Positions 43,994-58,114 of a DNA stretch of 64,000 nt are shown here, piece by piece. A model generated the notes under the pieces. It had not been told where the DNA came from. It did no database searches and saw nothing but the letters and a program-made list of their open reading frames with translations. This stretch comes from Escherichia coli. Lineage in GTDB: Bacteria; Pseudomonadota; Gammaproteobacteria; Enterobacterales; Enterobacteriaceae. Both the position numbers and the translations under genes were made by a program. Position 1 is the first letter of the stretch; each line of letters begins with the position of its first letter. Location of the stretch: the NCBI RefSeq assembly GCF_044324785.1, contig NZ_CP172127.1; one strand, given 5' to 3'.

Positions 43994-44989
43994 ATGAAAA
44001 AGAAAAGACCCGTACTTCAGGATGTGGCTGACCGTGTAGGCGTGACCAAAATGACGGTCAGCCGCTTTTTGCGTAACCCGGAGCAGGTTTCCGTCGCTCT
44101 ACGCGGCAAGATTGCCGCCGCTCTTGATGAACTGGGTTATATTCCCAATCGCGCGCCCGATATCCTCTCTAACGCCACCAGCCGGGCGATTGGCGTCCTG
44201 TTACCTTCTCTCACCAACCAGGTTTTCGCGGAAGTATTACGCGGAATCGAAAGCGTCACCGACGCGCACGGTTATCAGACCATGCTGGCCCACTACGGTT
44301 ATAAACCGGAAATGGAGCAAGAACGCCTCGAATCAATGCTCTCATGGAATATCGACGGACTGATCCTCACCGAACGTACCCACACGCCGCGCACCTTAAA
44401 GATGATTGAAGTGGCGGGGATTCCGGTGGTGGAACTGATGGACAGCAAGTCGCCGTGCCTCGATATTGCCGTCGGTTTTGATAACTTTGAAGCGGCACGC
44501 CAGATGACCACCGCCATTATTGCTCGCGGGCATCGCCACATTGCCTATCTCGGCGCACGTCTCGACGAACGTACTATCATCAAACAGAAGGGATACGAAC
44601 AGGCGATGCTGGATGCAGGCCTGGTGCCATATAGCGTGATGGTTGAGCAATCTTCTTCTTACTCTTCCGGTATTGAACTGATTCGCCAGGCGCGGCGGGA
44701 ATATCCGCAGCTGGATGGCGTGTTCTGTACTAATGATGACCTGGCGGTCGGCGCGGCGTTTGAATGCCAGCGTCTGGGGTTGAAAGTTCCTGACGATATG
44801 GCGATTGCCGGTTTCCATGGTCATGACATTGGTCAGGTGATGGAACCACGGTTGGCGAGCGTACTGACGCCGCGTGAGCGGATGGGCAGTATTGGCGCTG
44901 AACGCCTGCTGGCGCGTATTCGTGGCGAATCTGTGACACCGAAAATGTTAGATTTAGGTTTCACCTTGTCACCGGGCGGATCTATTTAA
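43994..44989 (+). CDS. gntR: Gluconate repressor GntR (LacI family)
   Basis: 331 aa with an N-terminal HTH (LQDVADRVGVTKMTVSRFL). Confidence 0.93.
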   Translation: MKKKRPVLQDVADRVGVTKMTVSRFLRNPEQVSVALRGKIAAALDELGYIPNRAPDILSNATSRAIGVLLPSLTNQVFAEVLRGIESVTDAHGYQTMLAHYGYKPEMEQERLESMLSWNIDGLILTERTHTPRTLKMIEVAGIPVVELMDSKSPCLDIAVGFDNFEAARQMTTAIIARGHRHIAYLGARLDERTIIKQKGYEQAMLDAGLVPYSVMVEQSSSYSSGIELIRQARREYPQLDGVFCTNDDLAVGAAFECQRLGLKVPDDMAIAGFHGHDIGQVMEPRLASVLTPRERMGSIGAERLLARIRGESVTPKMLDLGFTLSPGGSI

Positions 44990-45068
44990 GCCCACAAATT
45001 TGAAGTAGCTCACACTTATACACTTAAGGCACGGATGGATATTGCTTCTGATATTGTCCGGCCGGACA

Positions 45069-45098
45069 ATGTTACCGATAACAGTTACCCGTAACATT
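45069..45098 (+). promoter_or_regulatory. Two overlapping GntR operator sites upstream of gntK
   Basis: ATGTTACCGATAACAG and AGTTACCCGTAACATT are near-palindromes of the GntR box, 30 to 60 bp upstream of the gntK start. Confidence 0.65.
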
Positions 45099-45128
45099 TT
45101 TTATTTCTTGTATTGTGGGGGCACCACT

Positions 45129-45656
45129 TTGAGCACGACTAACCATGATCACCACATTTACGTCTTGATGGGCGTATCGGGCAGCGGCAAATCTGCGGTC
45201 GCCAGTGAAGTGGCGCACCAACTTCATGCCGCGTTTCTTGATGGCGATTTCCTCCATCCACGGCGCAATATCGAAAAAATGGCCTCTGGTGAACCGCTGA
45301 ATGACGACGATCGTAAACCGTGGTTGCAGGCGCTGAACGACGCCGCGTTTGCCATGCAGCGTACCAATAAAGTGTCGCTGATCGTCTGTTCTGCACTGAA
45401 AAAACACTATCGCGACCTGCTGCGTGAAGGTAATCCGAATCTTTCTTTCATCTACCTGAAAGGCGATTTTGATGTGATTGAAAGCCGCCTGAAAGCGCGC
45501 AAAGGCCATTTCTTTAAAACCCAAATGTTGGTGACGCAGTTTGAAACGCTGCAGGAGCCGGGTGCGGACGAAACCGATGTACTGGTGGTGGATATCGATC
45601 AACCGCTGGAAGGTGTTGTGGCAAGCACCATTGAGGTTATTAAAAAAGGCAAATAA
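45129..45656 (+). CDS. gntK: Gluconokinase GntK, probable TTG start
   Basis: The mature N-terminus (M)STTNHDHHIYVLMGVSGSGKS aligns from TTG at 45129, with a GGGGG Shine-Dalgarno 8 nt upstream; no in-frame ATG gives the expected 175 aa. Confidence 0.85.
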   Translation: MSTTNHDHHIYVLMGVSGSGKSAVASEVAHQLHAAFLDGDFLHPRRNIEKMASGEPLNDDDRKPWLQALNDAAFAMQRTNKVSLIVCSALKKHYRDLLREGNPNLSFIYLKGDFDVIESRLKARKGHFFKTQMLVTQFETLQEPGADETDVLVVDIDQPLEGVVASTIEVIKKGK

Positions 45657-45659
45657 GTA

Positions 45660-47000
45660 GTGACTACATTAACGCTTGTTTTAACAGCAGTAGGGTCTGT
45701 TTTACTGCTGCTGTTTTTAGTCATGAAGGCGCGTATGCACGCTTTCCTGGCTTTGATGGTGGTGTCCATGGGGGCTGGCCTTTTTTCCGGTATGCCGCTC
45801 GATAAAATCGCAGCGACGATGGAAAAAGGGATGGGAGGCACCCTCGGCTTTCTGGCGGTGGTTGTCGCCCTGGGAGCCATGTTTGGCAAGATCTTACATG
45901 AAACCGGCGCAGTCGATCAGATTGCCGTCAAAATGCTCAAATCCTTCGGTCACAGCCGCGCGCATTATGCCATCGGCCTTGCGGGGCTGGTCTGTGCGCT
46001 GCCGTTGTTCTTTGAAGTGGCGATTGTTCTGCTGATTAGCGTTGCTTTCTCAATGGCGCGCCACACCGGTACGAACCTGGTGAAGCTGGTAATCCCATTA
46101 TTCGCAGGCGTGGCGGCAGCGGCTGCGTTCCTGGTGCCGGGGCCTGCGCCAATGCTGCTGGCATCGCAGATGAACGCCGACTTTGGCTGGATGATCCTGA
46201 TTGGCCTGTGTGCGGCAATTCCGGGAATGATTATTGCCGGGCCGCTGTGGGGTAATTTCATCAGCCGCTACGTGGAGTTGCATATTCCTGACGACATCAG
46301 CGAACCACATCTCGGTGAAGGCAAAATGCCGTCCTTCGGATTCAGCCTGTCGCTGATCCTGTTGCCACTGGTGCTGGTGGGGCTGAAAACCATTGCCGCG
46401 CGCTTTGTGCCGGAAGGCTCTACCGCTTACGAATGGTTCGAGTTTATTGGTCATCCGTTTACCGCGATTCTGGTTGCTTGTCTGGTAGCAATTTATGGCC
46501 TGGCAATGCGTCAGGGTATGCCAAAAGACAAAGTGATGGAAATTTGTGGTCACGCGCTGCAACCGGCGGGGATCATTCTGCTGGTGATTGGTGCAGGCGG
46601 CGTGTTCAAACAGGTGCTGGTTGACTCTGGCGTAGGTCCGGCACTGGGCGAAGCGTTAACCGGCATGGGCCTGCCGATTGCCATCACCTGCTTCGTGCTG
46701 GCAGCTGCAGTGCGCATCATTCAGGGTTCTGCCACCGTTGCCTGTTTAACGGCGGTGGGACTGGTGATGCCGGTTATTGAACAACTGAACTATTCCGGAG
46801 CGCAAATGGCGGCGCTGTCGATTTGTATCGCCGGTGGTTCGATTGTTGTCAGCCACGTTAACGACGCCGGTTTCTGGTTGTTCGGTAAATTTACCGGCGC
46901 GACTGAAGCCGAAACACTGAAAACCTGGACCATGATGGAAACCATCCTCGGCACTGTCGGTGCTATCGTTGGGATGATTGCGTTCCAACTGTTGAGTTAA
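45660..47000 (+). CDS. gntU: Low-affinity gluconate permease GntU (GntP family)
   Basis: 446-aa polytopic transporter with GTG start, 4 nt after the gntK stop. Confidence 0.9.
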   Translation: MTTLTLVLTAVGSVLLLLFLVMKARMHAFLALMVVSMGAGLFSGMPLDKIAATMEKGMGGTLGFLAVVVALGAMFGKILHETGAVDQIAVKMLKSFGHSRAHYAIGLAGLVCALPLFFEVAIVLLISVAFSMARHTGTNLVKLVIPLFAGVAAAAAFLVPGPAPMLLASQMNADFGWMILIGLCAAIPGMIIAGPLWGNFISRYVELHIPDDISEPHLGEGKMPSFGFSLSLILLPLVLVGLKTIAARFVPEGSTAYEWFEFIGHPFTAILVACLVAIYGLAMRQGMPKDKVMEICGHALQPAGIILLVIGAGGVFKQVLVDSGVGPALGEALTGMGLPIAITCFVLAAAVRIIQGSATVACLTAVGLVMPVIEQLNYSGAQMAALSICIAGGSIVVSHVNDAGFWLFGKFTGATEAETLKTWTMMETILGTVGAIVGMIAFQLLS

Positions 47001-47139: not shown

Positions 47140-49236
47140 ATGGAAAAGCACGGAGCTGAATTGCTTTTACAGCGGATGTTAGGAAATACCACCGCTACTT
47201 TCAGGGAAGGGCAATGGGAAGCCATAGATGCAGTGGTTAATCAGCGGCGAAAACTGCTGGTTGTACAGCGCACCGGCTGGGGGAAAAGTGCCGTGTACTT
47301 CATCGCCAGTAAAATCTTCCGAGATCGCGGCGCTGGCCCGACAATTATCATCTCTCCTTTGCTTGCCCTGATGCGTAACCAGGTTGCCGCCGCTGAACGG
47401 TTAGGTATTACGGCTGAAACGTTGAATTCTACAAACAGGGAAGAATGGCAGCGCATTAGCGATAAGTTGCTGCAAGGTGAGGTCGATTGCTTGCTGGTTT
47501 CCCCGGAACGATTGGCAAACCAGGACTTTATCGAAACGGTTTTATATCCTATAGCCGATCGTATTGGCTTGCTTGTGGTCGACGAGGCGCACTGCATCTC
47601 TGATTGGGGCCACGATTTTCGCCCGGATTACCGACGTATATTAGATATTTTGCGCCAACTGCCTGCGAATACCCCTGTTCTGGGTACAACCGCGACAGCG
47701 AATAACCGTGTTGTTGAGGATATCCGTCAGCAATTGGGTGACATTGTGATTCAGCGTGGAACGCTGGCTCGCGAAAGTTTGGCGCTTGATGCCTTAGTCT
47801 TAGGAGAACAGTCATCCCGTCTGGCATGGTTAGCAACGGTTATCCCTCAGTTTTCCAAATCGGGAATTGTTTATACCCTGACGACTCGCGATGCTGAACT
47901 TGTCGCCGAGTGGTTAAGGAAAAATGGTATCAGTGCATTTGCTTACTACAGCGGCGTGACTTGTGAAGGCGCGGAAGATTCTAATACTGCCAGGGAATAT
48001 CTGGAGCAGGCACTGCTGGCAAATAAAATCAAAGTGCTGGTCGCGACGACGGCATTAGGTATGGGGTTTGATAAACCTGATTTAGGTTTCGTCATTCATT
48101 ATCAGATGCCGGGGTCTATTGTCGGTTACTACCAACAGGTGGGGCGTGCCGGTCGTGCTATAGATTCCGCAGTTGGCATATTGCTTTGTGGTGGTGAAGA
48201 CCGCGCTATTCATCAATTCTTCCGTGAAAGCGCCTTTCCTGCGGAGGCGCAAATTCATGAAATACTCAACGTACTTAGCGAGAATGACGGTCTTACCCTA
48301 CGAGGCATTGAACAACGGACGAATCTTCGTTATGGGCAAATAGAAAAAGCACTGAAATTATTGGTAGCGGAAAATCCATCGCCTGTGGTGTATACCGAGA
48401 AATTATGGCGCAGAACTATCGTCAGTTTTTCTCCTGATCATGAACGAATTAACCATTTGATGAATCAGAGAAAAAGTGAGCTGGCAGACGTTGAAAGCTA
48501 TATCACGACCAAGGAGTGCAAAATGCAATTTCTGCGCCGTGCACTCGATGAGCCAAGTGCCGAACGTTGTGGTAAATGTAGCAGTTGTCTTCAGCATCCG
48601 TTATTGTCGCCCGACATTGATAGCGGCTTACTCCATGCGGCAAATTTATTTATTAAACACGCTGACCTGCCGTTAAATCTCAATAAACAGGTGGCAGCTG
48701 GGGCTTTTACGCAATACGGATTTAAAGGGAACTTGCCTGCGGGTTTACAAGGATCTACGGGGCGAATCCTTTCTCGTTGGGGAGATTCCGGGTGGGGAAA
48801 GCAGGTAGCACAGGAGAAAAAAACGGGGCGCTTCAGTGATGAGCTGGTAGAAGCATGTGCGGAAATGGTTCGCCAACGCTGGAATCCGCATCCTGAACCA
48901 ACCTGGGTATGCTGCGTTCCTTCATTAAGGCACCTCGACCTGGTTCCTGATTTTGCCCGGCGACTGGCGGCGAAACTTGGCTTACCTTTTATTGATGCCA
49001 TTGAAAAAGTCGTGGACAATCCACCGCAGAAAATGCAGCAAAACCGTTTTCACCAGTGTCAAAATCTCGACGGGGCGTTTGTGATTACCCCTCCTTTGAT
49101 GCCAGGTCCGGCGTTGCTGGTTGACGATATCGTGGATTCTGCATGGACGCTGACAGTTCTGACAGCACTGTTACGCCAGGCAGGTTGCCCGACGGTTTAT
49201 CCTCTTGCCCTTGCTTCTACCTCGGTAAAAAATTGA
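47140..49236 (+). CDS. RecQ-like SF2 DNA helicase fused to a C-terminal ComF/GntX-type phosphoribosyltransferase-fold domain
   Basis: 698 aa. Walker A TGWGKS (47272..47289); DEAH box with RecQ signature VVDEAHCISDWGHDFRPDY (DEAH at 47581..47592); GTTATA; YYQQVGRAGR; Cys cluster CKMQ...CGKCSSC. The C-terminal 180 aa carry the PRTase motif LLVDDIVDSAWTLT (Asp-Asp codons from 49123). AGGAG Shine-Dalgarno 8 nt upstream. Confidence 0.85.
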   Translation: MEKHGAELLLQRMLGNTTATFREGQWEAIDAVVNQRRKLLVVQRTGWGKSAVYFIASKIFRDRGAGPTIIISPLLALMRNQVAAAERLGITAETLNSTNREEWQRISDKLLQGEVDCLLVSPERLANQDFIETVLYPIADRIGLLVVDEAHCISDWGHDFRPDYRRILDILRQLPANTPVLGTTATANNRVVEDIRQQLGDIVIQRGTLARESLALDALVLGEQSSRLAWLATVIPQFSKSGIVYTLTTRDAELVAEWLRKNGISAFAYYSGVTCEGAEDSNTAREYLEQALLANKIKVLVATTALGMGFDKPDLGFVIHYQMPGSIVGYYQQVGRAGRAIDSAVGILLCGGEDRAIHQFFRESAFPAEAQIHEILNVLSENDGLTLRGIEQRTNLRYGQIEKALKLLVAENPSPVVYTEKLWRRTIVSFSPDHERINHLMNQRKSELADVESYITTKECKMQFLRRALDEPSAERCGKCSSCLQHPLLSPDIDSGLLHAANLFIKHADLPLNLNKQVAAGAFTQYGFKGNLPAGLQGSTGRILSRWGDSGWGKQVAQEKKTGRFSDELVEACAEMVRQRWNPHPEPTWVCCVPSLRHLDLVPDFARRLAAKLGLPFIDAIEKVVDNPPQKMQQNRFHQCQNLDGAFVITPPLMPGPALLVDDIVDSAWTLTVLTALLRQAGCPTVYPLALASTSVKN

Positions 49237-50438
49237 TGAATCTTTCAGCCAATGCACAAGCGACTCTCCTGCTAACCAGCGATTTTTCTCGCGCGGCGGC
49301 GAGTGAGTATAAACCTCTTAGTAATAGTGAATGGGGGAAGTTTGCATTATGGCTGAAGCACCAACGTATCAGTCCCGCCGATCTTCTGGTACCGCAACCG
49401 CAAGAGAAACTTACAGGCTGGAGCGATCCGCGTATTTCTCAGGAGCGTATTCTTGGCTTGCTGGCGCGTGGTCATAGTCTGGCGTTGGCGGTAGATAAGT
49501 GGCAACGCGCCGGATTATGGATCTTAACCCGCGGAGATGCCGATTATCCCGTTCGCTTGAAAAACCGATTGCGAACGGATGCTCCTCCCGTTTTATTTGG
49601 CTGCGGGAATAAAGCATTATTGCAAGCGGAAGGTATGGCGATTGTTGGCTCGCGAGATGCTCCGACTGACGATTTGCGCTATACCCAACAACTGGCAGCG
49701 AAACTGGCCCAACAGGGGATTTGCGTTATCTCTGGTGGTGCGCGAGGTATTGATGAATGTGCAATGGCGTCGGCACTGGAGGCCGGGGGAACTGCCGTTG
49801 GCGTATTAGCTGATAGCTTGTTAAAAACGAGCACGTTAGTGAAATGGCGTGAAGGGCTTATAGCAGGCAACCTGGTGTTGATTTCACCGTTTTACCCAGA
49901 GGTACGTTTCACTGTCGGCAATGCGATGGCGCGGAATAAATATATTTATTGCCTTGCTGAAAGCGCAATGGTTGTACGTGCGGGAATGACCGGTGGAACG
50001 ATAACCGGAGCGATGGAGGCGTTAAAACATCAGTGGCTGCCTGTTCTGGTTAAACCAAATCAGGATGTGCAATCAGCCAATTCACGATTAGTAGAAAATG
50101 GGGCGTCATGGAGTGCTGAACAGGCTGAGAATGTGACGATCAGACTGCCAGATGTTCCTGGGCTGATGTATGACAGAGCACTCCGTAACGCTCAACCAGA
50201 ATTGTTTTCGCTGCTCGAAGATGACGCAAATTACGCAGTAATGCCCGCGCATACCCCTGTCGATTTTTATCAACTCTTTGTGGCGGAACTGGCGATCCTT
50301 GCAAAGGAATCGATAAGTATTGAAAGGCTGGCGTCTTGTACTGGTTTAACCATCGAACAAATTAGTGTGTGGCTGAACCGCGCAGAAGAAGAGGGAAGGG
50401 TTATCCGATTGGGCGAAGGTCATTATCAGTTCAGGTAA
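49236..50438 (+). CDS. DprA/Smf-like (SLOG Rossmann) protein with a C-terminal winged-helix-like region
   Basis: DprA core motifs AIVGSRDAPTDDL, ISGGARGIDECAM, NAMARNKYIYCLAE and VVRAGMTGGT. Start chosen at the ATG sharing one base with the upstream TGA stop (400 aa); an in-frame ATG at 49143 would give 431 aa. Confidence 0.8.
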   Translation: MNLSANAQATLLLTSDFSRAAASEYKPLSNSEWGKFALWLKHQRISPADLLVPQPQEKLTGWSDPRISQERILGLLARGHSLALAVDKWQRAGLWILTRGDADYPVRLKNRLRTDAPPVLFGCGNKALLQAEGMAIVGSRDAPTDDLRYTQQLAAKLAQQGICVISGGARGIDECAMASALEAGGTAVGVLADSLLKTSTLVKWREGLIAGNLVLISPFYPEVRFTVGNAMARNKYIYCLAESAMVVRAGMTGGTITGAMEALKHQWLPVLVKPNQDVQSANSRLVENGASWSAEQAENVTIRLPDVPGLMYDRALRNAQPELFSLLEDDANYAVMPAHTPVDFYQLFVAELAILAKESISIERLASCTGLTIEQISVWLNRAEEEGRVIRLGEGHYQFR

Positions 50439-51077: not shown

Positions 51078-51268
51078 AACTCAAATTCCCTGATAATTGC
51101 CGCGGACTTTCTGCGTGCTAACAAAGCAGGATAAGTCGCATTACTGATGGCTTCGCTATCATTGATTAATTTCACTTGCGACTTTGGCTGCTTTTTGTAT
51201 GGTGAAAGATGTGCCAAGAGGAGACCGGCACATTTATACAGCACACATCTTTGCAGGAAAAAACGCTT

Positions 51269-52372
51269 ATGAAAAATGTTGGTTTTATCGGCTGGCGCGG
51301 TATGGTCGGCTCCGTTCTCATGCAACGCATGGTTGAAGAGCGCGACTTCGACGCCATTCGCCCTGTCTTCTTTTCTACTTCACAGCTTGGTCAGGCTGCG
51401 CCGTCTTTTGGCGGAACCACTGGCACACTTCAGGATGCCTTTGATCTGGAGGCGCTAAAGGCCCTCGATATCATTGTGACCTGTCAGGGCGGCGATTATA
51501 CCAACGAAATCTATCCAAAGCTTCGTGAAAGCGGATGGCAAGGTTACTGGATTGACGCAGCATCGTCTCTGCGCATGAAAGATGACGCCATCATCATTCT
51601 TGACCCCGTCAATCAGGACGTCATTACCGACGGATTAAATAATGGCATCAGGACTTTTGTTGGCGGTAACTGTACCGTAAGCCTGATGTTGATGTCGTTG
51701 GGTGGTTTATTCGCCAACGATCTTGTTGATTGGGTGTCCGTTGCAACCTACCAGGCCGCTTCCGGCGGTGGTGCGCGACATATGCGTGAGTTATTAACCC
51801 AGATGGGCCATCTGTATGGCCATGTGGCAGATGAACTCGCGACCCCGTCCTCTGCTATTCTCGATATCGAACGCAAAGTCACAACCTTAACCCGTAGCGG
51901 TGAGCTGCCGGTGGATAACTTTGGCGTGCCGCTGGCGGGTAGCCTGATTCCGTGGATCGACAAACAGCTCGATAACGGTCAGAGCCGCGAAGAGTGGAAA
52001 GGGCAGGCGGAAACCAACAAGATCCTCAACACATCTTCCGTAATTCCGGTAGATGGTTTATGTGTGCGTGTCGGGGCATTGCGCTGCCATAGCCAGGCAT
52101 TCACTATTAAATTGAAAAAAGATGTGTCTATTCCGACCGTGGAAGAACTGCTGGCTGCGCACAATCCGTGGGCGAAAGTCGTTCCGAACGATCGGGAAAT
52201 CACTATGCGTGAGCTAACCCCAGCTGCCGTTACCGGCACGCTGACCACGCCGGTAGGCCGTCTGCGTAAGCTGAATATGGGACCGGAGTTCCTGTCAGCC
52301 TTTACCGTGGGCGACCAGCTGCTGTGGGGGGCCGCGGAGCCGCTACGTCGGATGCTTCGTCAACTGGCGTAA
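51269..52372 (+). CDS. asd: Aspartate-semialdehyde dehydrogenase
   Basis: Start at [21 protein letters not shown] gives 367 aa; active-site cysteine context GGNCTVS. Confidence 0.95.
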
Positions 52373-54831: not shown

Positions 54832-56801
54832 CACAACTCGCCATTGGCAAACCCGCACCCCTCGGCGCGCATTACGACGGTCAGGGCGTCAACTTCACAC
54901 TTTTCTCCGCTCATGCCGAGCGGGTAGAACTGTGTGTCTTTGACGCCAATGGCCAGGAACATCGCTATGACTTGCCAGGGCACAGTGGCGACATTTGGCA
55001 CGGTTATCTGCCGGATGCGCGCCCGGGTTTGCGTTATGGTTATCGCGTTCATGGCCCCTGGCAACCCGCCGAGGGGCATCGCTTTAACCCGGCGAAGTTG
55101 TTGATTGATCCTTGCGCGCGGCAAATTGACGGGGAATTTAAAGATAACCCGCTGCTGCACGCCGGTCATAATGAACCTGACTATCGCGACAACGCCGCCA
55201 TTGCGCCGAAATGCGTAGTGGTGGTTGATCACTATGACTGGGAGGATGATGCTCCGCCGCGCACGCCGTGGGGCAGTACCATCATTTATGAAGCCCATGT
55301 CAAAGGATTAACGTACCTGCACCCGGAGATCCCGGTCGAGATCCGTGGCACTTATAAAGCCCTGGGGCATCCGGTGATGATCAACTATTTGAAACAGTTG
55401 GGCATTACCGCGCTGGAACTGCTGCCGGTGGCGCAGTTTGCCAGCGAACCACGCCTGCAACGTATGGGTCTAAGTAACTACTGGGGTTATAACCCGGTGG
55501 CGATGTTTGCGCTGCATCCGGCGTATGCCTGCTCCCCAGAAACGGCGCTTGATGAGTTTCGCGATGCAATCAAAGCACTGCATAAAGCGGGTATCGAAGT
55601 CATTCTTGATATCGTGCTCAACCATAGTGCGGAACTGGACCTCGACGGCCCGTTATTCTCTCTGCGTGGGATCGACAACCGTAGCTATTATTGGATAAGA
55701 GAAGACGGCGATTATCACAACTGGACCGGTTGTGGCAACACGCTCAATTTGAGTCATCCGGCGGTGGTGGATTATGCCAGCGCCTGCCTGCGTTATTGGG
55801 TAGAAACCTGCCACGTCGATGGTTTCCGCTTTGATCTGGCGGCAGTCATGGGCCGTACGCCAGAGTTTCGTCAGGATGCGCCGTTGTTTACCGCTATCCA
55901 GAACTGCCCGGTGCTCTCGCAGGTGAAGTTAATTGCTGAACCGTGGGATATTGCTCCTGGTGGTTATCAGGTGGGAAATTTCCCACCGCTGTTTGCCGAG
56001 TGGAACGATCATTTCCGCGATGCTGCCCGTCGTTTCTGGCTTCATTATGATTTGCCTCTGGGGGCGTTTGCCGGGCGTTTTGCTGCCTCCAGCGATGTTT
56101 TTAAACGTAATGGTCGTCTGCCGAGTGCCGCGATTAATCTCGTCACCGCGCATGACGGTTTTACGCTTCGCGACTGCGTTTGCTTCAACCATAAACATAA
56201 TGAAGCAAACGGAGAAGAAAATCGCGACGGGACCAACAACAATTACAGTAACAATCATGGTAAAGAAGGGTTAGGCGGTACTCTTGACCTGGTTGAACGG
56301 CGTCGCGACAGCATTCACGCCCTGTTAACAACGTTGTTGCTCTCCCAGGGTACGCCGATGTTACTGGCCGGTGACGAACATGGTCACAGCCAGCATGGCA
56401 ATAACAATGCCTACTGTCAGGATAACCAATTAACCTGGTTGGACTGGTCGCAGGCAAGCAGTGGTTTAACCGCATTTACCGCCGCGTTAATCCATCTGCG
56501 CAAGCGCATTCCCGCTTTGGTGGAGAATCGCTGGTGGGAAGAAGGCGACGGCAATGTCCGTTGGCTAAATCGATATGCTCAACCTTTAAGCACGGATGAG
56601 TGGCAAAACGGGCCGAAACAGCTGCAAATTCTGCTCTCGGATCGCTTTTTGATCGCAATTAACGCCACGCTTGAGGTAACAGAGATTGTTTTACCTGCTG
56701 GGGAGTGGCACGCCATTCCCCCATTCGCTGGAGAGGATAACCCAGTGATTACGGCTGTCTGGCAGGGACCTGCACACGGATTGTGTGTGTTCCAGAGATG
56801 A
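54828..56801 (+). CDS. glgX: Glycogen debranching enzyme
   Basis: 657-aa GH13 ORF; 4-bp overlap with glgB. Confidence 0.95.
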
Positions 56802-56818
56802 TAAAAAAGGAGTTAGTC

Positions 56819-58114
56819 ATGGTTAGTTTAGAGAAGAACGATCACTTAATGTTGGCGCGCCAGCTGCCATTGAAATCTGTTGCCCTGATACTGGCGGGAG
56901 GACGTGGTACCCGCCTGAAGGATTTAACCAATAAGCGAGCAAAACCGGCCGTACACTTCGGCGGTAAGTTCCGCATTATCGACTTTGCGCTGTCTAACTG
57001 CATCAACTCCGGGATCCGTCGTATGGGCGTGATCACCCAGTACCAGTCCCACACTCTGGTGCAGCACATTCAGCGCGGCTGGTCATTCTTCAATGAAGAA
57101 ATGAACGAGTTTGTCGATCTGCTGCCAGCACAGCAGAGAATGAAAGGGGAAAACTGGTATCGCGGCACCGCAGATGCAGTTACCCAAAACCTCGACATTA
57201 TCCGCCGTTATAAAGCGGAATACGTGGTGATCCTGGCGGGCGACCATATCTACAAGCAAGACTACTCGCGTATGCTTATCGACCACGTCGAAAAAGGCGC
57301 ACGTTGCACCGTTGCTTGTATGCCAGTACCGATTGAAGAAGCCTCCGCATTTGGCGTTATGGCGGTTGATGAGAACGATAAAATTATCGAATTCGTTGAA
57401 AAACCAGCTAACCCGCCGTCAATGCCGAACGATCCGAGCAAATCTCTGGCGAGTATGGGTATCTACGTCTTTGACGCCGACTATCTGTATGAACTGCTGG
57501 AAGAAGACGATCGCGATGAGAACTCCAGCCACGACTTTGGCAAAGATTTGATTCCCAAGATCACCGAAGCCGGTCTGGCCTATGCGCACCCGTTCCCGCT
57601 CTCTTGCGTACAATCCGACCCGGATGCCGAGCCGTACTGGCGCGATGTGGGTACGCTGGAAGCTTACTGGAAAGCGAACCTCGATCTGGCCTCTGTGGTG
57701 CCGGAACTGGATATGTACGATCGCAATTGGCCAATTCGCACCTACAATGAATCATTACCGCCAGCGAAATTCGTGCAGGATCGCTCCGGTAGCCACGGGA
57801 TGACCCTTAACTCACTGGTATCCGGCGGTTGTGTGATCTCCGGTTCGGTGGTGGTGCAGTCCGTTCTGTTCTCGCGCGTTCGCGTGAATTCATTCTGCAA
57901 CATTGATTCCGCCGTATTGTTACCGGAAGTATGGGTAGGTCGCTCGTGCCGTCTGCGCCGCTGCGTCATCGATCGTGCTTGTGTTATTCCGGAAGGCATG
58001 GTGATTGGTGAAAACGCAGAGGAAGATGCACGTCGTTTCTATCGTTCAGAAGAAGGCATCGTGCTGGTAACGCGCGAAATGCTACGGAAGTTAGGGCATA
58101 AACAGGAGCGATAA
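56819..58114 (+). CDS. glgC: Glucose-1-phosphate adenylyltransferase
   Basis: Start at [33 protein letters not shown] gives 431 aa. Confidence 0.95.

Follow-up and report, generated by a model that had tools for sequence, protein, structure and literature searches.

The TTG start codon of the gluconokinase gene gntK in a rare lineage of Escherichia coli

The closest described counterpart of the gene considered here is gntK of Escherichia coli K-12 (b3437, NP_417894.2; WP_000108330.1; PDB 1KNQ), which encodes the thermoresistant gluconokinase of the GntI system. Purified GntK was reportedly sequenced from its N-terminus by Izu et al. in 1996. A thermosensitive gluconokinase paralog, encoded by idnK (gntV) and described by the model NF007336, shares the GntK/IdnK-type family TIGR01313 with GntK. 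In E. coli, UUG initiates approximately 3% of the genes; relative to AUG, the output from the three canonical start codons is 10–100% (bioRxiv 10.1101/063800). An engineering study from 2025 gives UUG as the native start codon of gntK and describes a change from UUG to AUG in MG1655 that cut residual gluconate from 0.42 g/L to less than 0.05 g/L (PMC12523793), an indirect sign that the codon affects expression. The TTG start of gntK is correct and ordinary, and it is already known, because the curated annotation agrees with it and published work states it.

In this study, we analyzed a stretch of 64,000 nucleotides from E. coli contig NZ_CP172127.1 (hereafter, the window), in which gntK lies between gntR and gntU. 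The gntK locus was found in 5424 of 5426 complete E. coli genomes. Over the 781-nt stretch 44940–45720, only two to three of the 5424 genomes have at least 99% identity to the window, which places the window in a rare lineage of the species. The best match is the genome designated N3 (99.9%), whereas the identity of K-12 over the same stretch is 97.8%. The same protein accessions are annotated for GntK, GntR, and GntU in N3 and K-12 despite the nucleotide divergence. A further genome, EC38, was included in the alignments. The features discussed below are as follows.

43994–44989, plus strand: gntR, the repressor gene directly upstream of gntK (open reading frame; annotated in K-12, N3, and EC38).
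45042–45044, plus strand: upstream in-frame TTG, the start of the mechanical 204-aa open reading frame and not the real start (weak Shine–Dalgarno spacing; frame lost in K-12-type sequences).
45069–45097, plus strand: two adjacent GntR-operator-like boxes, ATGTTACCGATAACA then GTTACCCGTAACAT (conserved motifs; the first box contains ATG 45069).
45097–45102, plus strand: run of six T, five in most E. coli (alignment with K-12, N3, and EC38).
45117–45121, plus strand: Shine–Dalgarno sequence GGGGG (anti-Shine–Dalgarno duplex energy; conserved purine block).
45129–45131, plus strand: gntK start codon TTG (sequence, annotations, and orthologs).
45129–45656, plus strand: gntK coding sequence for a GntK/IdnK-type gluconokinase (175 codons plus TAA).
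45168–45170, plus strand: internal ATG (Met14), an alternative start in some database entries and not the start.
45660–47000, plus strand: gntU, the gluconate transporter gene (open reading frame with a GTG start; annotated in K-12, N3, and EC38 at the same relative coordinates).

The frame read from 45129 encodes LSTTNHDHHIYVLMGVSGSGKS... and ends at the TAA at 45654–45656; its product is the 175-aa GntK, MSTTNHDHHIYVLMGVSGSGKS... The protein scored 241 bits with the GntK/IdnK-type subfamily model TIGR01313 (cutoff 113.75), the profile of which begins at GntK residue 11. The IdnK model NF007336 gave 183.4 bits, which is under its cutoff of 304, indicating that the window protein is GntK and not IdnK. 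The Walker A P-loop GVSGSGKS (GxxxxGKS/T) occupies residues 15–22 and is invariant in 81 sequences. From the identity with the characterized K-12 enzyme, ATP-dependent phosphorylation of d-gluconate is the predicted activity. The GTG start of gntU (45660) lies 3 nt past the gntK TAA; therefore, both genes of gntKU have non-ATG starts. At least 12 arrangements of the junction between the gntK stop and the gntU start were seen among species.

Two adjacent matters of gene content may be recorded here. On the plus strand at 47140–50438, between gntU and yhgN, the window carries two overlapping genes that make up a toxin-antitoxin/anti-phage pair of the PsyrTA type: a protein of 698 aa matches PADLOC PsyrT over its full length with 1067.8 bits, and one of 431 aa matches PsyrA with 665.3 bits. 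PGAP names their counterparts in N3 RecQ-family helicase and DprA; a RecQ-family gene is present at this place in N3 and EC38, whereas K-12 is without the pair and has yhgN directly after gntU. For the segment 62129–63646 (plus strand), after glgP, the N3 annotation gives a PstS-family phosphate-binding protein and, next to it downstream, a hypothetical protein.

Several lines place the start of gntK at TTG 45129, as the preliminary description of this DNA had proposed on the grounds that the known GntK N-terminus fits the TTG frame. In the curated K-12 annotation, the comparison that the description itself had suggested, MG1655 gntK (NC_000913.3; b3437, NP_417894.2) is a 528-nt coding sequence that opens with TTG AGC ACG ACT, the same TTG. 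The annotated start of gntK in N3 maps to window position 45129. Three further matches agree and are annotation-derived, hence not independent of the original gntK annotation: PGAP calls the same start (protein WP_000108330.1) in a K-12 derivative, N3, and EC38; the NCBIfam gluconokinase equivalog model NF008583 scores 371.7 bits against a cutoff of 265, with profile position 1 on the TTG codon (residue 30 of the 204-aa open reading frame); and residues 30–204 of that open reading frame correspond to residues 1–175 of PDB 1KNQ chain A (E = 6e-115). The sole difference shown is at the start codon, where the mechanical translation has L and the 1KNQ chain, which begins MSTTNHDHH, has M1. The supplementary tables of three initiation-site and N-terminomics studies (TetRP, TRAINSPOTTER, and INRI-seq) do not contain gntK.

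The ribosome-binding site points to the same codon. The in-frame candidates are TTG 45042, TTG 45054, ATG 45069, TTG 45108, TTG 45129, TTG 45165, and ATG 45168. The duplex with the anti-Shine–Dalgarno sequence at TTG 45129 has an energy of -8.4 kcal/mol, the best of nine candidate starts. The background positions of the window average -2.6 kcal/mol, with the 5th percentile at -6.5 and the 1st at -9.3 kcal/mol, and the energy at TTG 45129 is beyond the 5th percentile. The GGGGG at 45117–45121 is separated from TTG by a spacer of 6–7 nt (8 positions from the last G to the first base of TTG), which bears out the G-rich Shine–Dalgarno sequence noted earlier at 8 nt upstream.

Comparison across species was based on an ortholog scan of representative genomes, which yielded 80 Enterobacteriaceae loci with 90–99% protein identity. 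The homologous start codon is TTG in 77 of the 80 species and ATG in three (Yokenella, Trabulsiella, and Buttiauxella). At this codon, five of five more distant orthologs, which were obtained through protein hits (Cronobacter, three Erwinia types, and Pantoea; 76–84% identity), carry ATG, and they are flanked by a LacI-family gene and a GntP permease, as in the window. Either TTG or ATG is thus found at this codon in all 85 orthologous loci. Downstream of it, codons 2–13 differ at their third positions but encode conserved amino acids; among the 81 sequences, S2, T3, N5, and H9 never change, and T3 is encoded by four different codons. Upstream of it, the only conserved positions in these sequences are a purine G/A block from -8 to -12, with an invariant G at -10, and a C at -2. 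Start codons are typically recognized in comparisons by just such an alternation of TTG and ATG at a fixed position, with constraint setting in right after it. The nearest in-frame stop upstream of the gntK start is 7–40 codons off in the 80 species, and in 36 of them the gntK start is the first ATG, GTG, or TTG after that stop. The comparison across species is decisive; together with sequence and annotation, it shows that gntK very probably starts at TTG 45129 and that the upstream extension is spurious.

We propose a course of initiation for this gene. The GGGGG Shine–Dalgarno sequence, 7 nt upstream, would position the 30S subunit at TTG 45129, which the initiator tRNA would read as fMet, and the product of initiation at 45129 would be the 175-aa thermoresistant gluconokinase GntK. 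The stretch from gntR to the TTG would serve as a non-coding regulatory leader or promoter region with its GntR-operator-like boxes. Because initiation is weaker at TTG than at ATG, GntK synthesis is probably held down. Ribosome initiation at 45129 in this strain and a tuning role of the weak gntK start codon are both what we infer.

The leader contains an ATG of its own. ATG 45069 is the first three bases of the conserved motif ATGTTACCGATAACA. Of 87 sequences, 86 have the heptamer ATGTTAC in the 140 nt before the start, and each of the 81 Enterobacteriaceae sequences searched has the second box, GTTACCYGTAAC, in the 120 nt before it. The second box is 18–87 nt away from the start, and these distances divide among all three mod-3 classes (40/24/17). 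Judged by the gnt regulon literature, the boxes at 45069–45097 are putative GntR operators. A scan for sigma-70 consensus promoters found no plus-strand site. By eye, a CRP-like TTTGA-N6-TCACA is seen at 44999–45014, just past the gntR stop, and GATATT hexamers, possible -10 elements, at 45038–45043 and 45050–45055.

In every case, the open reading frame that starts at the operator ATG opens with MLPITVTRN, the motif in translation; what follows diverges. Its fate among the 87 sequences varies: in 30 it stops upstream of gntK, in 26 it ends on a TGA overlapping the start, in 15 it is in frame with gntK, in 15 it stops inside gntK, and one sequence is without the ATG. The window is one of the 15 with the operator ATG in frame. 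These divergent fates exclude a conserved N-terminal extension as well as a conserved coupled uORF.

In K-12, the operator ATG (locus L001, 1630–1692, equivalent to window 45069–45132) opens a 20-codon open reading frame, MLPITVTRNIFNSCIVGAPL*, the TGA of which overlaps the gntK TTG (cTTTGA). A uORF of this type might drive gntK by translational coupling, and the same overlap in 26 of the 87 sequences speaks for such an arrangement. However, the overlap is missing in the other 61, the spread of outcomes reveals no conserved frame and is roughly that of chance frame placement, the operator ATG is without a Shine–Dalgarno sequence, and the window is without the overlap yet encodes an identical GntK. 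Coupling from the operator ATG is therefore a very unlikely explanation of gntK translation, and the overlap of the uORF TGA with the gntK TTG is probably incidental. The candidate of a conserved coupled uORF with a TTGA overlap was rejected, since the overlap occurs in only 26 of 87 sequences and all other outcomes are seen as well. A translational switch via mRNA structure at the Shine–Dalgarno sequence and start was likewise considered and rejected. RNAalifold on 70 sequences from -45 to +48 gave no conserved RNA structure over the Shine–Dalgarno sequence and start; the six pairs predicted lie only inside the coding sequence and are without compensatory changes.

An upstream in-frame start, either ATG 45069 (195 aa) or TTG 45042 (204 aa), would give an extended GntK. 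The frame is open from 45009 in the window and N3, 15 of the 87 sequences have the operator ATG in frame, and gene callers chose such starts in other lineages (e.g., the 196-aa entry P0003). The initiation signals nevertheless argue against both codons. ATG 45069 has an anti-Shine–Dalgarno energy of -3.2 kcal/mol with a 1-nt spacer and an unfolding cost of 16.2 kcal/mol, the highest of the candidates, and TTG 45042 has -5.7 kcal/mol with a 2-nt spacer. Beyond the operator-encoded MLPITVTRN, conservation of the extension is nil, and PGAP does not choose an upstream start in N3, which has the same sequence. Moreover, neither ATG 45069 nor TTG 45042 can be read through into gntK in K-12, EC38, approximately 97% of the sampled E. 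coli, and most species, where the frame differs or a stop intervenes.

The origin of the long frame can be read from the alignment. In the window, as in N3, the upstream frame is open from 45009; a TAG at 45006 bounds it in the window. These two sequences differ from K-12 and EC38 by one extra T in 45097–45102 and by a T for A at 45104, and because of these two changes the TAA of K-12 is lost and the frame is opened to 45009. K-12 and EC38 have this in-frame TAA nine codons upstream of the gntK TTG. ATG 45069, TTG 45042, and TTG 45054 are out of frame in K-12 and EC38 because their T-run is one T shorter. Of 60 E. coli genomes sampled evenly, 58 have the T-run shorter by 1 nt, and the long upstream frame is therefore a lineage-specific accident. 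A start of GntK at ATG 45069 or TTG 45042 is therefore extremely unlikely, and a minor extended GntK product from ATG 45069, which is in frame in this lineage, is formally possible.

These results also modify the preliminary description, which had stated that no suitable in-frame ATG is available. An in-frame ATG does exist at 45069, although it has no usable Shine–Dalgarno sequence, and the word "suitable" can be defended on that ground. The 204-aa open reading frame had been said to begin with an ATG at 45042; this codon is TTG. The extension that an ATG-only call would add is spurious, as had been claimed; however, such a call would start at 45069 and give a protein of 195 aa with 20 extra residues, not 29.

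A start at the internal ATG 45168 (Met14) would give a 162-aa protein and turn the TTG into a leucine codon in the leader. ATG is the commonest start codon, and 162-aa database entries beginning MGVSGSGKS exist (P0017). In P-loop kinases, this start would delete the strand leading into the Walker A loop, which counts against Met14. The sequence comparisons likewise oppose it: ATG 45168 is without a Shine–Dalgarno sequence (+1.2 kcal/mol), codons 2–13 are under protein-level constraint with the four invariant residues noted above, the TIGR01313 profile begins ahead of Met14, and Cronobacter, Erwinia, and Pantoea carry ATG exactly where E. coli has TTG. We regard initiation at Met14 as exceedingly improbable. 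A start seven codons upstream of the annotated one at TTG 45108 (182 aa), the sole alternative that K-12, too, has in frame, past the K-12 TAA, and that is present in a subset of species, has next to no probability, given that it is without a Shine–Dalgarno sequence (+0.6 kcal/mol), would put the real Shine–Dalgarno sequence inside the coding sequence, and would add residues between the two TTG codons that are not conserved, while 36 of the 80 species have no upstream alternative start of any kind and only approximately 15 of the 80 have TTG at this position.

With TTG 45129 as the start of gntK, the main importance of the question lies in annotation. Gene callers that prefer the longest open reading frame or ATG over-extend gntK from the operator-box ATG where it is in frame, as in the window. 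The 196-aa entry P0003 (MLPITVTRNNLQLVEWGPALSTTNHDHH..., 226 member sequences) begins MLPITVTRN and is over-extended, as are P0004 and P0005. Callers that accept ATG alone but refuse the extension end up at Met14, and the N-terminus is lost; the entry P0017 (162 aa from Met14, 28 members), named gluconokinase [Escherichia coli], is truncated in this manner. The over-extended public entries show that the earlier warning about spurious extensions was realistic, and the opposite error occurs too.

Other entries and genes show further length differences. P0001, P0002, and P0087 (215–225 aa) have normal N-termini and frameshifted C-terminal extensions into gntU; a frameshift introduced by assembly or sequencing close to the gntK stop is the probable cause. 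Within the window, the mechanical open reading frame of asd (51209–52372, 387 aa) is longer than the N3 PGAP coding sequence (1104 nt), and that of glgC (56783–58114, 443 aa, GTG) is longer than its N3 counterpart (1296 nt). Both are longest-frame over-extensions of the same kind as in gntK.

The conservation of the weak codon was compared with that of silent positions. Of 81 phylogenetically non-independent sequences, 78 (0.963) have the T of TTG as the first base of the start codon. The four-fold silent sites of gntK (n = 48) have a median major-allele frequency of 0.66, and only one of the 48 reaches 0.96; when phylogenetic structure is ignored, the T is more conserved than approximately 98% of the gntK silent sites. 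This excess over silent sites is a hint that, at least within the core Enterobacteriaceae, the weak start is maintained and not drifting. Clades neighboring the core Enterobacteriaceae use ATG for gntK, and putting AUG in place of UUG increases flux through the pathway (PMC12523793). That selection actively maintains the weak TTG across the core Enterobacteriaceae (Escherichia, Salmonella, Citrobacter, Klebsiella, Enterobacter, Kosakonia, and relatives) is a tentative reading of these alignments, and we lean against it. The weak TTG perhaps caps GntK relative to the co-transcribed GntU or confers sensitivity to initiation-factor status. With a weak start conserved in its first gene, gntKU would show a small and known type of expression tuning. 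Its relevance to metabolic engineering is apparent from the UUG-to-AUG swap of gntK, which has already been exploited (PMC12523793).

The gntK locus of the window can thus be set beside the known systems. Like the approximately 3% of E. coli genes that start with UUG, gntK has a canonical weaker start codon and a normal Shine–Dalgarno sequence, and no mechanistic difference from other UUG-start genes was found with respect to conserved RNA structure at the ribosome-binding site or a conserved coupled uORF. The K-12 locus shares with the window the TTG start, the Shine–Dalgarno sequence, and the gene order gntR-gntK-gntU, and its GntK is the same protein as that annotated in N3. It differs by approximately 2% nucleotide divergence over the locus, and the window has the PsyrTA pair after gntU. 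In Cronobacter, Erwinia, Pantoea, Yokenella, Trabulsiella, and Buttiauxella, gntK keeps the same start position, the same N-terminal length before the P-loop, a GGAG-type Shine–Dalgarno sequence, and the gntR-gntK-gntU context, whereas ATG replaces TTG.
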